Shown here in pieces: positions 1-5,666 of a DNA stretch of 26,187 nt. The notes under the pieces were generated by a model that had not been told where the DNA came from, did not search any database, and saw only the letters and a program-made list of their open reading frames with translations. Position 1 is the stretch's first letter. Every line of letters begins with the position of its first letter. The translations under genes and the position numbers were made by a program. Source of the DNA: Chloroflexota bacterium (GTDB lineage Bacteria; Chloroflexota; Dehalococcoidia; SZUA-161; SpSt-899); contig QLUN01000001.1 of assembly GCA_018725455.1 (NCBI GenBank), positions 1-26,187 on the forward strand. Direction: 5' to 3'.

Positions 1-67
1 CGTTTGCCCATACGGTTTCGTCGTTGTAGAAGTCCCGGAACTCGGCGACTGTGGTCTTGGTGGTCAT
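1..67 (-). CDS. Hypothetical protein, 5' end only (MTKTTVAEFRDFYNDETVWAN...), runs off the window
   Basis: ATG at 65-67 (minus) preceded by AAGGAG; 14 nt downstream of the 82..381 stop; frame open to the window edge. Confidence 0.6.
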   Translation of the reverse strand, partial: MTTKTTVAEFRDFYNDETVWAN

Positions 68-81
68 TGGCTCTCTCCTTA

Positions 82-381
82 TCAATCCCCGCTAGTTAAT
101 TCGCGCAATTCAGCCTCAGACTGTAAGGCTAAGATTTCCAGCTTTCGCGCGATCTCTCCAACTCCTTGAGCAATGGTTAAAGCTAACTTTGCGCGCAGAT
201 CGGACAATTCCTTTTCATTGCCGATTGCATAATCGGCTGCGGCCTGTGCATTATCTGCCTTTTTGCTGGAATCGATAAGCTCCGCATAAGCTAATTCCGC
301 GATTTTCCAAGCCGAATCAACTCTGGTGCGCGCCTCGGCTACTCGCGCGTTGTGGGTGTCAGTGGTCTTAGTGCTTTCCAT
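82..381 (-). CDS. Hypothetical helical protein (99 aa)
   Basis: ORF track 82..387; GGAG lies 6 nt before the ATG at 381, and motif spacing also favours 381. Confidence 0.7.
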   Translation of the reverse strand: MESTKTTDTHNARVAEARTRVDSAWKIAELAYAELIDSSKKADNAQAAADYAIGNEKELSDLRAKLALTIAQGVGEIARKLEILALQSEAELRELTSGD

Positions 382-419
382 AAGCATCTCCGGTAAGCCG
401 CGATGTTGCGGCAGTGCTC

Positions 420-449
420 ATTGCTCCAGCGCTTTCGCAGCTTTGTTGC
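420..449 (-). promoter_or_regulatory. GCAACA-N18-AGCAAT element, copy 1
   Basis: Sense GCAACA aagctgcgaaagcgctgg AGCAAT; hairpin 397-412; 63 nt from ATG 381. Confidence 0.75.
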
Positions 450-455
450 GATAGC

Positions 456-1460
456 TCACGGCAAGAGCATTTTTCTACGTTCCGCTAGGCGTCCTAGCTG
501 CCTGCGGCGCTCCTCGCCATCAAGAGTTGTGTCGGCGTGCTCTGCGTATCGTGCTGGCATCGTGACGGTTTTCCATCCACCACGCTTCTGCATTTGTGCA
601 AGCGTAGCACCAGAAAGCATCATGTCCTGCGCCCCTCCCACCCTGCCCGAATGACCGCTAAGACCTTCCACGCCCACTAGCTTTCCACCTGTCTCAATGA
701 GCTTGGCTATCTGTCGAGTGGAGATCGGCTGACGACCGCTCCGGTAGGGAGAGGGAAAAAGCCAATCCTCCTCCGGGCACCTCTGGTCTGCAAAAGCGCG
801 ATGAGCCGAGATCCATTTCATCGTTTCTGGACTGATACTGCGAGTGCTACCAGCACCATCCTGATCCGTTTTTGATCGTTCAATCAGCATCTCGCCAGCA
901 TCGCCACGCACAGCGCGGATGTGGCTCAGCCGGAGCGATGAAATCTCACTGATTCTCAGCAGGCCGTCGTAGGCTAGTCCGATCATCGCGCCGATCATGG
1001 CATCACGAGGCCTTGAGGGTGAAAGGGTGGCAAGGATCGATCGCACAACATCCTCAGTCATTCCGATGGCCTGTTTCTGGCGTTTAGTCAGAATGTCGCG
1101 GCAGGCGTGTTTCCAAAAATCCCTGAACTCGGTGTTGTCTGTTGGGTCGGCGTGCCCCAACCTCCGGGATGCTGTTCTGATGGGGTAGAGGAGGGTTGTT
1201 TCAATGCTAGATCGCTTTTTTTTAGACTCAATGTGGCGCTTCACCACGTCAATCAGCAGAGCGTTGTTTGCGGGAATGGGTGGCAGTCCGGCGAGTTCGC
1301 AAGCCCTGCACCACCTTGTCCAGCCATCCGTGAGAACCTGAAGTGTTCGCGGAGCAAACGGCGTGACTTTGCTGCCATACATGACCGTAAAGAACGGTTC
1401 ATCGTAGGCGTCACTGACAATCGCGCGCTGCCGCGATGCGGTAGTCGTAGTCTCGCTCAA
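456..1460 (-). CDS. Cre-like tyrosine recombinase (TnpS/Cre-type resolvase), 334 aa, TTG start
   Basis: Catalytic set LLRISE (R), RSKTD (K), [10 protein letters not shown] (HxxR), GGWK (W as in Cre) and ARY (Y); C-terminal box resembles Cre SGHSARVGAARDM...QAGGW; start overlaps the csrA stop (TTGA). Confidence 0.9.
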
Positions 1461-1666
1461 GACTCTCCCCTCCCTTCTGCCTTAATATCGCACCTTGGTT
1501 TTTTACCGCTGGCGATCCGTTCTGCGACCTCCAGGCGATGTACCGCTACAGACCTTGGTGCATTGATTCCGATCCGAACTTGACCGCCCATTACTGAAAT
1601 AACCGTAACGGTAATTTGGTCGCCGATGGTTAGTGTTTCGCCTGGTTGGCGCGTCAGAATGAGCAT
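1457..1666 (-). CDS. csrA: Carbon storage regulator CsrA/RsmA (69 aa)
   Basis: MLILTR.PGE...IGD.I.V.V....G.QVRIGI.AP..VAVHR.E signature; GAGGAG RBS. Confidence 0.97.
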
Positions 1667-1669
1667 TAA

Positions 1670-2785
1670 TTACTCCTCTTTTCGTGTTTTTTGAAACTTA
1701 AGAAATTGCAATCGTTCCGCGATATTGGCAAGAGCTTCCGGCACCTTGGCGTTCATTTTTTCCATCTCGATGTTTCTTCGCCGCAAATCTTCTATTTCGC
1801 GGTTTAGTGTATTGTTTTCGGCTTGAAGATTGTGCTTGAGGATGTCTTTTTCGGCATCCGCTGAAATGCGATTTTCAAGCTCTCCCTCAAGTGCGATAAT
1901 TCGCTTCTCAAAAGCGTTTTTCGCCTCGGCCCATCGGGAAGCGGCCTCGGATTGTGTCGAGCGCATGCTTTGCACCTCTCGCAAGTGGGCCGTTTTGACC
2001 TCATTGATCGACTCGCGAAGGGCTGTCATTGAGGCTGCCGCCTCGGAAGCCACTCGATCAAGCTCGGCTTGCTTGGCTGCAACAGCAGCTTTCGCAGCAT
2101 CGGCCACAAGGCGTGATGCGGTGAGATCCTCACTGAGAGTGGATAGGCTGTCATTGGCTGTTTTGATGGCCGCCTGGGCCTGCTCGAGGCGTCTTTCGGC
2201 GTCTTTTGCGATGGCTTCAGCGGCTTGTCGTCTAGCTTCAGATTCTCTTCGGTCAGATGCCGCCGAGGCCGCTGATGCGCGAGCCGCTGCTAGCTCTGCA
2301 CTGGCGAGTTCAAGATTAGCCTTGAATATGGGAATAATCCTCTCGTTTTCCTCGGCTTTTTTCGCCAATTCATTTTCTTTGGACTCAGCCATTTTTAGGG
2401 TCTTTTGTGTCGCTTCACGCTCTGCCTCAACGTCAGACCATTCCCTGGCAAGAGCTTCATCAGCAGCCCGACGAGCATCCTCTCGGAGTTCGGCGATAAG
2501 TTCGTGTGCGGCCTTCGGAATATCGCTTGAATTAACAACAGTGATCTGGCCGTGCAGAAGGGCCGGTGCCCGTTCTGCGAACCATCGGCGGACAAGCGGG
2601 TGTAGCGTGTTCGGGCTACCTCCCAATATTCCGCGCACATTGGCTTCGCTAGGGGTTTTCCCGTTCTCAATCAGATGAAGGATGGCATCCTCGACATGAT
2701 TGATGGTTAGGGTTTCACGAGGTTCCCTAATGGGAGCACGGTGTTTCGTCTTTCCGGCAATGCCGGTTGAACTCGACTGATTCAT
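1670..2785 (-). CDS. KfrA_N-domain DNA-binding coiled-coil protein (KfrA/TnpT-like), 371 aa
   Basis: N-terminal GKTPSEANVRGILGGSPNTLHPLVRRW (KfrA_N-like), then about 250 aa of Ala/Glu-rich heptads; CAGGAG RBS before ATG 2785. Confidence 0.8.
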   Translation of the reverse strand: MNQSSSTGIAGKTKHRAPIREPRETLTINHVEDAILHLIENGKTPSEANVRGILGGSPNTLHPLVRRWFAERAPALLHGQITVVNSSDIPKAAHELIAELREDARRAADEALAREWSDVEAEREATQKTLKMAESKENELAKKAEENERIIPIFKANLELASAELAAARASAASAASDRRESEARRQAAEAIAKDAERRLEQAQAAIKTANDSLSTLSEDLTASRLVADAAKAAVAAKQAELDRVASEAAASMTALRESINEVKTAHLREVQSMRSTQSEAASRWAEAKNAFEKRIIALEGELENRISADAEKDILKHNLQAENNTLNREIEDLRRRNIEMEKMNAKVPEALANIAERLQFLKFQKTRKEE

Positions 2786-2954
2786 GATTTCTCCTGGTTG
2801 CAGAGCAGCCCGCATTCGATTGTTGGTTCGTCGGCGTATCGCCAGGAAACCTCCGGCAATTGGTCAAGAAAGACGCACCGTCGAACGCTAGGTTCCGCTC
2901 GACTGGTTTGCGGCACGGCCTATTGCGTGACGGGCCGTAGATCCCGATGCACAT

Positions 2955-3209
2955 TCAAGGCCTCCACACACGAAAAGATGCCGGCGCGGCAGGCGTGCCT
3001 CGTCTGTACTCCACAGCAATCCCTTGCTCAGAGAGGAGCCTTGAGAGCTTGTAGATGGCTTTTGTGGTGGTGCTGGCGACTACGAGCTTCACTTTTGGAT
3101 CTTCTGAACCCGCAACCTCAGACAATTGAAGCCTGACGGGTTGTGACTTGCCTTCCGCGAGTGCGGCGATTCGCTCGGCAATCTGGTTGACGTTCCATTT
3201 TCTGCTCAT
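2955..3209 (-). CDS. Hypothetical protein (84 aa)
   Basis: ORF track 2955..3251; GAGGGG RBS before ATG 3209; a sigma70 promoter overlaps the longer start. Confidence 0.65.
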   Translation of the reverse strand: MSRKWNVNQIAERIAALAEGKSQPVRLQLSEVAGSEDPKVKLVVASTTTKAIYKLSRLLSEQGIAVEYRRGTPAAPASFRVWRP

Positions 3210-3240
3210 CGGCCCCTCTGCGTGGCGCTTCATTCCGTCA

Positions 3241-3269
3241 ATCCTACCCATTTGGCTAATTCATGTCAA
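3241..3269 (-). promoter_or_regulatory. Sigma70-type promoter TTGACA-N17-TAGGAT
   Basis: Perfect -35, 17-nt spacer, 4/6 -10; faces the 3209 gene and possibly the kfrA-csrA-recombinase operon. Confidence 0.75.
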
Positions 3270-3273
3270 ACAC

Positions 3274-3297
3274 TGTACGTCATACATATGATGTACA
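3274..3297. repeat. 24-bp imperfect palindrome TGTACGTCATA-CA-TATGATGTACA (operator or accessory site)
   Basis: 11-bp arms with one mismatch; directly abuts the lox-like site. Confidence 0.75.
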
Positions 3298-3331
3298 TTA
3301 AATTCGTATAATGACACTTAGCGGAAATTAG
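3298..3331. other. lox-like recombination site TTAAATTCGTATA-ATGACACT-TAGCGGAAATTAG
   Basis: 13-8-13 layout; arms 11/13 and 8/13 identical to loxP arms; asymmetric spacer; Cre-like recombinase 1.8 kb away. Confidence 0.7.
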
Positions 3332-3510
3332 AGGTGCGCCAAAGGGGTGAGTGAGCGATCCAAAGCGCGGTTCGCCAGCAGTAGCTCATCGCGGGCTGCG
3401 GCAAGAAGCAGCAACGATCGCAAAGGATGGTTTGGACAAGCCGCCGCCGCTTTGTGCTGCTGATTTTTAGGCCCTATAGTTAGGTTGCATCGGATCTAGC
3501 GGAGATGGAC

Positions 3511-3540
3511 GCAACACGCCGAAAGAGTGGCCGCATCAAC
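3511..3540 (+). promoter_or_regulatory. GCAACA-N18-ATCAAC element, copy 2
   Basis: GCAACA cgccgaaagagtggccgc ATCAAC; hairpin 3548-3562; 64 nt from ATG 3580. Confidence 0.75.
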
Positions 3541-3579
3541 AACGGATGCCGCAATCAGCGGCGCAAAAGGATTGAACAA

Positions 3580-3996
3580 ATGACTCGCCTCACCTACCTT
3601 ATCGGCCACACCAGCCCGCTGCCGCCCTCTCTAACTGATCCAAATAACTACGGGATGATGGATTTCCGTCAGCCATCAGCGAATGGCCAAGAAACGATTC
3701 TGCTTCAGGAGCCAGGTCGCATCATTAATGAGTTCAGAGGAAAAAAATACAGCAGATCGCCGCTTGGAGTATGCTACCGGGATCACTGTTTTGCCCTTAT
3801 CGATAAGAGCTACCAATACATCATTCGTGTTGAAAATAGTGTGGGCACTCTAGATTTTCGCGTATCCCCGTATTTCCCGACGATTTTGATGCCGCTGGAA
3901 AGTGACGCGCGATTTATTCTTATGCACTTAATCTATAATGCGCGCTATCGCCAATGCGGAATCGCGCTGCCGAAAGCGCACTCGGACTGCGATTAA
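3580..3996 (+). CDS. Hypothetical protein (138 aa), paralog of 5914..6315
   Basis: AAGGA RBS; shares L.GH...LP.SL, ET.L.EPGR and LM...SD.RF..L blocks with 5914..6315. Confidence 0.75.
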   Translation: MTRLTYLIGHTSPLPPSLTDPNNYGMMDFRQPSANGQETILLQEPGRIINEFRGKKYSRSPLGVCYRDHCFALIDKSYQYIIRVENSVGTLDFRVSPYFPTILMPLESDARFILMHLIYNARYRQCGIALPKAHSDCD

Positions 3997-4050
3997 ACCC
4001 TGATTTAACCCGCCCTGCGCTGGATGCGCCGGGCATGCTTGGAGAATACA

Positions 4051-4233
4051 ATGAGCGATCCCTACAGAAAGGCATCCGCAGCCAAGGCCAAGGCTGCAAA
4101 AACCGCCACCGCAAAGATCGAGGCTGCTTTCGCTGCGGACATCTTCCGCGTATTCGAAGAATCCGCCAGGGCCAGGGCTGCCAAAGCCAAGAAGGAAGGA
4201 CAGATAACCAAAAAACCCACTACTGTTAAGTAG
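4051..4233 (+). CDS. Small basic Ala/Lys-rich protein (60 aa)
   Basis: GGAG 6 nt before ATG 4051; stop codon falls inside the terminator hairpin. Confidence 0.6.
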   Translation: MSDPYRKASAAKAKAAKTATAKIEAAFAADIFRVFEESARARAAKAKKEGQITKKPTTVK

Positions 4234-4244
4234 TGGGTTTTTTT
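4210..4244. terminator. Bidirectional intrinsic terminator
   Basis: AAAAAACCCACTAC-tgttaa-GTAGTGGGTTTTTTT between convergent genes. Confidence 0.9.
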
Positions 4245-4246
4245 AT

Positions 4247-5074
4247 TCATGGATGCGACACTGGTGGAGCTTTGAATTTTTCACGCAGTCGAACAAGCTC
4301 GCCAGCCACGCCAAGGTTGTACACCTCAATCCCTTTATTTTTTGCAATCCTCAGCGACTGGCCTGTGCCGCCGGCCATTAAGCCATCCCTTGTCCAGCAA
4401 ACGATGAAATCGACCGGGCTTTCAAGATCAGCGCCGAGCAATTGATGGACATTGCGAGCATGGAGTGCTTTCGCCCCATTCTTGCAAGAATCCCATGCTG
4501 GATGAGACTTCGCCGCCAGTGCAAAGGCTTCAGGTGATGGTGTTTGGCTCGAAGAGTGCCCATTAAAGCCAGCCCAGGGCACCCACACCTCTGCATCCCC
4601 TCCGGCGGCCAGTGCGCCCTCCTCGAAAGCAGAGTCGGCACCTATAGCAGCGCCGGAGCGCAAGGTGTAGCCCTTCCCCGCTAAGTACCCGGCAATCTTC
4701 CGCATCGAATCGAGGATTTCTTGCGGAGTTCTTCGTGAGCCGATGCCAGCGTAGGATTTGAATTGACTGGGTTGATTCGTTGAGTTGGCGATTTGCATCA
4801 AGACATCGGCATGGCAAGCGTGCGGGGCACACCAGCACACTAAATCCTTCCCACCGAGTTCAGACCTGATGCGGGTGAGTAGGCCCGGCTCCACATCCAT
4901 TCTATCAATCAACCATCTCCTATAGCGCAAGATCGCCTCATCGCGCGATGAAACTCGGAACTTAGCAATCGTACTGCTCAAGTGCGAGAATGGGTTTCCC
5001 CATTCGGACGGTCGACCAACATACACCGCCGATGGCGGTGTAGCGCCGTGGTGCTTGTTGTAGACGCGAGGCAT
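4247..5074 (-). CDS. DUF4326 + SLOG (DprA/Smf-like) fusion protein, 275 aa
   Basis: N-terminal YVGRPSEWGNPF...GKDLVCWCAPHACHADVL (DUF4326); C-terminal YAGIGSRRTP...LRSGAAIGADSAFE...GGTGQ (SLOG); CAGGAG RBS before ATG 5074. Confidence 0.85.
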   Translation of the reverse strand: MPRVYNKHHGATPPSAVYVGRPSEWGNPFSHLSSTIAKFRVSSRDEAILRYRRWLIDRMDVEPGLLTRIRSELGGKDLVCWCAPHACHADVLMQIANSTNQPSQFKSYAGIGSRRTPQEILDSMRKIAGYLAGKGYTLRSGAAIGADSAFEEGALAAGGDAEVWVPWAGFNGHSSSQTPSPEAFALAAKSHPAWDSCKNGAKALHARNVHQLLGADLESPVDFIVCWTRDGLMAGGTGQSLRIAKNKGIEVYNLGVAGELVRLREKFKAPPVSHP

Positions 5075-5355: not shown

Positions 5356-5666
5356 CACTCGTACCGTGGTCGACGCAGCGGATAAGGCTGCGGTTGTTCC
5401 CCACGCTGCATCACTGCGCCGTATTGGCCGCCGGCGTAAATCGCACTGCCGACGTCCCTTGTGCCTTCTGATGCCTTTCGAGCTTGATCCCAAAGGCGAT
5501 CCCGGTAACGACTCGCTTTGGCTTTCGACCGGAAGACACGTAGGAAGCGGCGATGCTCAGGCTCGGTGCTCGGCACGTTCGTATCGAAGTGCCAGCCCCC
5601 TTCCTCCGGGCCGCCATAGGCACGATCCAACTCGTGCAGGGCGACCACAAACCGACGGCGGCTCAC
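5355..5666 (-). CDS. Hypothetical protein with a YGGPEEGGW motif (103 aa)
   Basis: ORF track; ATGA overlap with the upstream gene; motif typical of a mobile-element hypothetical family (recognition only). Confidence 0.75.
   Translation of the reverse strand: MSRRRFVVALHELDRAYGGPEEGGWHFDTNVPSTEPEHRRFLRVFRSKAKASRYRDRLWDQARKASEGTRDVGSAIYAGGQYGAVMQRGEQPQPYPLRRPRYE

Follow-up and report, generated by a model that had tools for sequence, protein, structure and literature searches.

A Cre-type recombinase, a conserved lox-like site and a KfrA_N helper as components of a putative plasmid multimer-resolution module from a Chloroflexota metagenome-assembled genome

The DNA analysed here, contig QLUN01000001.1 (26,187 bp in its entirety, hereafter the window), belongs to a Chloroflexota metagenome-assembled genome (MAG) of 1.3 Mb that is 54% complete. 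Its minus strand carries an operon ending with the gene of a Cre-type tyrosine recombinase (P0001, positions 456–1460), upstream of which lie a lox-like site (34-mer, 3298–3331), a 24-bp palindrome (3274–3297) and a putative promoter (3241–3269). Together with the product of another gene of the operon, a KfrA_N and coiled-coil protein (hereafter the helper, 1670–2815), these elements probably form a plasmid multimer-resolution module, in which the recombinase would act on the lox-like core and the helper, in the manner of TnpT of the transposon Tn4651, on the adjacent motif. P0001 is Cre-like in its sequence, its catalytic residues and its modelled fold; the site is conserved and polar; the pairing with the helper is obligate; and site, palindrome and promoter are held in a fixed juxtaposition. 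From these features we infer which protein binds which element, the dependence on the helper and resolution as the biological role. A preliminary description of the same DNA had proposed a Cre/lox-type system; the Cre-type recombinase and the conserved lox-like site stand, whereas the notion of a self-contained pair does not, given the helper present in all ten relatives examined and the palindrome fused to the site in the window and six of seven related lineages.

Results

The recombinase is of the Cre type

The P0001 gene encodes 334 aa and begins with a TTG codon that overlaps the stop codon of the preceding csrA gene as TTGA. Its product matches the Pfam Phage_integrase family (6e-20), and its best relatives of solved structure are 17 distinct Cre/Tre sequences in the PDB, which align over both domains at about 1e-15, the next one being Xer (0.0025). 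P0001 is 27% identical to Cre over 309 aa (blastp, 1e-20, 78 bits) and 24% identical to VCre (63.5 bits); the match with TnpS of Tn4651 (36.6 bits) is confined to the C-terminal domain. Residues R169, E172, K197, H270, R273, W296 and Y305 stand in alignment columns that show no variation among the family members, Cre, VCre and TnpS. P0001 thus has a length within the 300–400 aa typical of Cre-type enzymes and equivalents of Cre R173, K201, H289, R292, W315 and Y324. The Cre-type catalytic set with a tryptophan at the position of the second histidine, already noted in the preliminary description, is confirmed by this alignment, the tryptophan being W296.

An AlphaFold2 model of P0001 (pLDDT 92) displays a Cre-like two-domain fold, with an N-terminal helical bundle and a catalytic domain. 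The top 33 PDB matches of this model consist entirely of structures of Cre and of Tre, an engineered Cre variant (TM 0.60–0.72 over about 300 columns), the next folds, IntI and XerA, reaching a TM of at most 0.5. By sequence, catalytic residues and predicted fold, P0001 is a Cre-type tyrosine recombinase. Note that the C-terminus (residues 300–332, window 456–560) is modelled as one long helix of about 33 residues, and that this segment aligns across the close relatives, with GxxR-type positions in common. One may speculate that such an extended tail helix, unlike the short C-terminal helix of Cre, contacts the coiled coil of the helper.

In a maximum-likelihood tree, P0001 falls in a well-supported clade of 11 metagenomic clusters, apart from Cre and VCre, which group together, and from TnpS; the deep placement of the clade is unsure because both Cre+VCre and TnpS sit on long branches. 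A scan of 185,579 species-representative genomes returned no relative of P0001 above 33% identity, and the relatives found by tblastn in plasmid and phage collections were all at most 32% identical, P1-type Cre being found as well. The closest homologues (at least 40% identity) come from metagenome assemblies only, with none among the species-representative genomes scanned.

A lox-like site is conserved upstream of the recombinase operon

Positions 3298–3331 of the window read TTAAATTCGTATA ATGACACT TAGCGGAAATTAG, or, in the recombinase-forward orientation (minus strand), CTAATTTCCGCTA AGTGTCAT TATACGAATTTAA. The references used for comparison were loxP from the annotated P1 record X03453 (L015:35–68), VloxP from Table 1 of PMC5964202, which also served to locate the p0908 record, and SloxM1 from PMC3082901. 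The 34-mer is identical to these three sites at 22, 23 and 21 of 34 positions, respectively, and no other place in the window, on either strand, matches any of them as well as position 3298 does. Its spacer is identical to that of VloxP at 7 of 8 positions, and CGGAAATT is common to both sites. The sequence of the 34-mer, its 22/34 identity with loxP and these two points of likeness to VloxP had been put forward in the preliminary description, and all of them held on re-reading and against the sourced references. Taken alone, the resemblance to loxP is borderline and only suggestive, since mononucleotide shuffles of the window yield a best match of at least 22 in about 4% of cases (and of at least 23 in about 1%).

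The contigs of homologues 41–65% identical to P0001 were then compared. A counterpart of the 34-mer lies upstream of the recombinase-ending operon, in the same orientation, in seven other lineages (contigs L004, L008, L009, L010, L012, L013 and L017), whose recombinases are 45–65% identical to P0001. Conservation beside homologous recombinase genes was the check suggested by the preliminary description, and absence from these places, the outcome that it regarded as fatal, was not observed. A weight matrix was built from the sites of six relatives, excluding the window. On the minus strand of the window, its score at 3298 is 22.6 bits, the next unrelated place reaching 8.4 bits and the best score in 100 shuffles being 18.6 bits; the same matrix finds the L017 site at 22.1 bits.

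The family consensus, in the recombinase-forward orientation, is nnaATTTCCGaTA AGGGnCAT TAGgCGAAATann. Its geometry can be described as 13-8-13 or equivalently as 14-6-14, because the central 6 bp are bordered by an A and a T that never vary. The asymmetric spacer keeps its polarity: it reads GCATACAT in loxP, ACTGTCAT in VloxP, AGTGTCAT in the window and AGGGnCAT in the family, with a final CAT in loxP, in VloxP and in all of the eight family sites except that of L013 (CGT). Position 7 of the arm is a T in 14 of 16 arms, and a G/T-A/C-T-A motif adjoins the spacer; both traits agree with those reported for active Cre-type sites, where position 7 is a T and a motif of the G/T-A-T/G-A type borders the spacer (PMC10250229). 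The window arms are complementary at 8 of 13 positions, compared with 13/13 in loxP and 12/13 in VloxP, and this poor arm repeat explains why an inverted-repeat search of the window did not list the 34-mer. The asymmetry is not a peculiarity of the window copy: it is found family-wide (5–11 symmetric positions out of 13), and positions 9–11 differ between the two arms in most family sites, with CCG-N in the left arm and, as reverse complement, CGCC in the right arm.

The window copy owes its likeness to loxP to its operator-proximal arm, TATACGAATTTAA, which deviates from the family consensus TAGGCGAAAT. This deviation is no assembly error, since identical copies are present in two other contigs, L002, which stems from a different assembly, and L003, which may stem from the source run. 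The same loxP-like arm contains a plus-strand TATAAT in the window copy; as a cause of the loxP likeness, this hexamer was rejected, the relatives keeping the site without it. It also bears on the idea that the 34-mer is purely regulatory or a chance resemblance, with no role in recombination, an idea to which the location of the 34-mer in a promoter region and a match to loxP that, by itself, reaches just p ~0.05 lend some weight. We consider it hardly credible, because three lox sites together have the 34-mer as their best match in the window and because the site is conserved, polarity included, in relatives devoid of TATAAT.

The 34-mer occurs once in the 1.3-Mb MAG, a copy number that fits dimer resolution, not inversion or excision. 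With the contig incomplete and the MAG covering about half of a genome, a second site could have been missed, as would be needed if P0001 acted as an integrase, inserting the element into a chromosome by way of the 34-mer as an attP-like site. Several observations make this scenario very improbable: neither a second copy nor a half-site of the 34-mer was found in the 1.3 Mb, the Cre-like fold predicted for P0001 has no arm-binding domain, the replication and transfer-related genes indicate a plasmid, and in L004, L008 and L017 the homology of the flanks continues from one side of the site to the other. Taken together, the comparisons support the view that the 34-mer is a lox-like site kept beside homologous recombinase operons. 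More specifically, its geometry, kept spacer polarity and arm features, its single copy and a layout shared with P1 and p0908 (site, small gene, then recombinase) speak for a recombination site, as opposed to some ordinary conserved operator.

When metagenome contigs were scanned starting from the site, five loci were returned, two of them in an already sampled lineage, so that no independent lineage was added. The other three loci have in common a palindrome that is unrelated to the present system and stands in AT-rich cassette arrays; these short contigs carry no recombinase. This near-perfect palindrome, ATTTCGCYTAA-N6-TTAGGCGAAAT, lies at L027:87–120, L028:178–211 and L029:1915–1948, on contigs of 26–36% GC, and adjoins runs of small unrelated genes, for instance three GNAT acetyltransferase genes; in L028, the small genes are parted by long attC-like repeats. 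Possibly, it is the site of a cassette system, of the integron type or another, with the half-site motif in common. In another contig, L019, where the recombinase is 30% identical to P0001 and the KfrA_N gene is divergent, positions 5530–5600 contain a SloxP-like imperfect repeat, ATGTCCGATAA...TAACGGACTT, adjoining a TGTATGCGCTACA motif, with a spacer that is apparently one base longer.

A KfrA_N protein accompanies the recombinase

The helper gene (1670–2815, minus strand) is a 381-aa open reading frame (ORF); in identical copies of this DNA, the gene is called from 2785, giving 371 aa. Residues 39–152 of the product match Pfam KfrA_N (3.5e-14), and weak coiled-coil-type matches follow. A KfrA_N/coiled-coil protein of 356–382 aa is encoded beside the recombinase gene in 10 of 10 relatives, whose recombinases are 30–65% identical; the two genes are co-directional in eight relatives and divergent in the other two (L018 and L019). 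Eight residues of the helper, A276, H277, R279, E280, A292, R294, W295 and A296, are invariant in 11 helpers; the patch that they define (~276–296), inside an otherwise variable coiled coil, is a candidate interaction motif.

No KfrA_N neighbour was found for Cre or VCre, nor on the Xanthomonas plasmid pXAC219, the sole member examined of a sister class of recombinases of about 400 aa; in view of that sister clade, the helper pairing appears specific to the P0001 clade. The Xanthomonas plasmid matches (1e-24) had been considered as possible TnpS proteins and were rejected, since they belong to this ~400-aa class lacking a KfrA_N neighbour. A tblastn search of plasmids with the helper gave no match. 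TnpT of Tn4651 (plasmid pWW0, L022:463–1461, 332 aa) has the same build as the helper, with a match to Pfam KfrA_N (2.6e-26) followed by a coiled coil. TnpT has been described as without similarity to known proteins (PMC4337579, PMC7157771), and a link between TnpT and KfrA was not found in the literature searched; the strong KfrA_N match of TnpT ties the transposon helpers to the plasmid KfrA family.

The site is fused to a palindrome and a promoter

The palindrome at 3274–3297, which has no strand, is symmetric at 10 of 12 positions, occurs once in the window and is readable in the relatives as two tandem 11-bp units, GTATGSCATAC. It directly abuts the 34-mer, with zero gap, in the window and in six of the seven related lineages, and four bases beyond it begins the –35 element of the putative sigma-70-like promoter of the operon (3241–3269, minus strand; TTGACA, 17 nt, TAGGAT; 10/12 in a consensus scan). 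A 95-bp block composed of the 34-mer, the palindrome and the –35 region of the promoter aligns without gaps in the window and these six lineages, while its outer flanks are not conserved. The exception is L013, which lacks the palindrome and keeps the 34-mer; of the two elements, it is therefore the 34-mer that is never missing where the recombinase is present.

In L017, the operon that follows the palindrome has no genes other than those of the helper and the recombinase, so the protein that binds the palindrome there should be the helper, the recombinase or a host factor. The case of L013 and the homology of the 34-mer to the sites bound by Cre, VCre and SCre lead us to infer that the recombinase binds the 34-mer and the helper the palindrome, which would make the latter a putative helper-binding accessory site and operator. 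The roles could conceivably be swapped, with the palindrome, read as 9-6-9 or 11-6-11, being the crossover site and the 34-mer the accessory or operator site. The geometry of the palindrome is compatible with a tyrosine recombinase, and the main inverted repeat of the Tn4651 tnpT–tnpS intergenic region, GTATG-N6-CATAC, has the same pentamers. This assignment is nevertheless improbable: the central hexamer of the palindrome is symmetric in most relatives (TACGTA) and would confer no polarity, L013 has a recombinase without a palindrome, and it is the 34-mer, not the palindrome, that resembles loxP, VloxP and SloxM1 and keeps a polar spacer.

The constant association of the helper and the fused palindrome also bear on whether the recombinase alone might suffice, as in a simple one-protein Cre/lox system, the KfrA-like protein then being an autoregulator or a partition-type protein and the palindrome its operator. 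Cre and VCre need no helper and have no such neighbour, P0001 scores better against both of them than against TnpS, and L013 still keeps the site in the absence of the palindrome. On the other hand, the helper is paired with the recombinase in all ten relatives, in two clades that differ in gene order, so that chance linkage is unlikely, and coupling is suggested by the absence of any gap between site and palindrome in the window and six lineages. We therefore regard a one-protein system as rather unlikely. This pairing and the ungapped fusion of site, palindrome and promoter make a two-component resolvase of the TnpS/TnpT/rst type the closer working model.

Comparison with known systems

Published descriptions (PMC4619425, PMC4337579, PMC7157771) present rst as a combination of the promoters of tnpS and tnpT with two palindromes, one serving TnpT as accessory site and the other serving TnpS as core site. 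The module of the window resembles the TnpS/TnpT/rst systems (Tn4651 on pWW0, TnXax1) in that a Cre-related tyrosine recombinase is encoded beside a KfrA_N and coiled-coil helper of about 330–380 aa and in that the composite site contains two palindromes and a promoter, to which we assign presumptive functions here; moreover, the distant relatives L018 and L019 share the divergent order of the helper and recombinase genes. It differs from them in other respects. The helper has just the N-terminal domain in common with TnpT and is not its orthologue. Both genes point the same way in the window and in eight relatives, and the site is placed upstream of the operon, not between divergent genes; the window operon also has csrA between the two genes and stands in a plasmid-like setting, with no match to a Tn3-family transposase among the large ORFs scanned. 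Finally, the core site is lox-like, with a 13-8-13 geometry. For these reasons, we say that the module may work like TnpS/TnpT, by analogy, and not that it is a member of that group.

With Cre/loxP of P1 and VCre/VloxP of the Vibrio plasmid p0908, the module shares the catalytic residues, the length and the two-domain fold of the recombinase, and a 34-bp 13-8-13 site with the same spacer polarity upstream of a recombinase-ending operon. Unlike P0001, which is 27% and 24% identical to them and belongs to a separate clade, Cre and VCre have neither a KfrA_N neighbour nor an abutting palindrome beside their sites; the window has both, and its site lies 1.8 kb from the gene. For Cre-type pairs in general, about 500 predictions exist, together with eight validated cases (PMC10250229, Jelicic et al. 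2023), a pair consisting of a Cre homologue of 300–400 aa with the six catalytic residues and of a nearby lox-like palindrome. The P0001 recombinase and its site are the same kind of object. The published pipeline looks for inverted repeats of 13–15 bp with an 8-bp spacer and at most two asymmetric positions, within 1 kb of the gene. The 34-mer agrees with this target rule in its 13-8-13 geometry and departs from it in arm symmetry and in distance, being located 1837 bp upstream of the recombinase start codon, and would thus have escaped the search. Note that arm symmetry and the 1-kb range are search criteria of that study, not mechanistic requirements.

Operon and contig content

The first gene of the operon (2955–3233, minus strand, the ORF extending to 3251) encodes a small protein of 92 aa of no known family, without a Pfam match; it is called with the same length in the identical copies L002 and L003. 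In L013 and L017, the helper gene follows the site with no small gene in between. The csrA homologue (1457–1666, minus strand, 69 aa; Pfam CsrA 2.5e-23, NCBIfam CsrA 1e-24) separates the helper gene from the recombinase gene in six lineages (the window, L004, L008, L009, L010 and L012) and is absent from that place in L013, L014 and L017. In L018, csrA is located inside an F-type transfer operon instead.

The rest of the contig is plasmid-like, with genes for a Toprim/AAA_25 primase-helicase, a single-stranded DNA-binding protein (SSB), a Sak annealase, a YqaJ exonuclease, H-NS, SNase, a 1615-aa SNF2 helicase, DsbC and a DUF4326 protein; F-type transfer genes are present on the contig of a more distant relative, L018. 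Pfam scanning of 20 large ORFs of this incomplete 26-kb contig gave no match to a Tn3-family transposase, and a search of plasmid DNA with window 1–4200 gave just one weak match of 97 bp. The window sequence is present in groundwater metagenome runs. Contigs assembled from three runs fork at window 398–431 and 4029–4058, with loose ends that differ in sequence, and a variant about 96% identical covers window 4029–4315 at higher depth in other samples; the forks suggest mosaic boundaries or repeats common to a related element. Contigs from RNA runs span 3591–4285 only and do not cover the operon.

Discussion

The observations reported here can be assembled into the following mechanism. A single minus-strand promoter would drive the four genes of the operon, which encode the small protein, the helper, CsrA and the recombinase. 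Two recombinase monomers would bind the two imperfect arms of the 34-mer, and the two 34-mer sites present on a plasmid dimer would synapse. Strand exchange across the central 6 bp (GTGTCA), carried out by Tyr305 with R169, K197, H270, R273 and W296, would then turn the plasmid dimer back into monomers. With its N-terminal KfrA_N domain, the helper would bind the 24-bp palindrome next to the 34-mer and, once bound, would both regulate the operon promoter and assist or direct recombination, like TnpT at the accessory site of Tn4651 rst.

Several points weigh against this reading, and they touch both of its components. On the side of the helper, a blastp comparison with TnpT gives no match, and a helper profile reaches TnpT with an E-value of 6.5e-4 over the N-terminal 76 columns only, KfrA_N being all that is common to the two proteins. 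KfrA-type proteins, such as KfrA of RK2, could be plain autoregulators. L013 has a helper and no palindrome for it to bind, and P0001 itself is no orthologue of TnpS, as indicated by its low score and its separate clade. On the side of the site, the distance to the recombinase gene is large, the arm symmetry of the window copy and of its relatives is below that of every validated Cre-type site checked, and the half-site motif also occurs outside this system, as the three unrelated palindrome loci show. Finally, no joints at the 34-mer were seen in four groundwater runs, assembled contigs being the material searched. With these points taken into account, we still consider a multimer-resolution module with a lox-like core and a TnpT-like helper the probable reading.

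A further step, which we put forward tentatively as a possibility and no more, is that a recombinase of the Cre clade has gained a TnpT-like helper whose binding array stands in a fixed register with the lox-like core, so that recombination is gated by the helper. If true, such gating would restrict the recombinase to resolution, or couple it to the operon's own promoter and to CsrA.

Both parent kinds, Cre-type recombinase/site pairs and TnpS/TnpT/rst systems, are already known, and with Cre-type pairs already predicted and validated in number the finding is an incremental one. What is new is a clade that is uncharacterised and so far seen in metagenomes only, a distinct lox-like target that the published search rules would pass over, a co-directional operon with csrA inserted, and a Cre-like, not TnpS-like, enzyme beside a TnpT-like helper. 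Cre-type recombinases with distinct targets are useful tools for genome engineering, and the present clade is just 24–27% identical to Cre and VCre, with a site that differs from loxP and VloxP at 11–12 of 34 positions. More important is the conserved helper, which suggests a TnpS/TnpT-like and not a Cre-like way of working, and this lowers the value of P0001 as a one-protein tool; the helper-paired module is, in turn, a tractable case for studying how an accessory protein gates a Cre-type enzyme. If the tentative scheme of helper gating holds, the module would amount to a compact Cre-type system of natural origin that can be switched by its helper and whose target differs from loxP, VloxP, SloxP and rox, and two separate branches of the Cre superfamily would each have recruited KfrA_N helpers.

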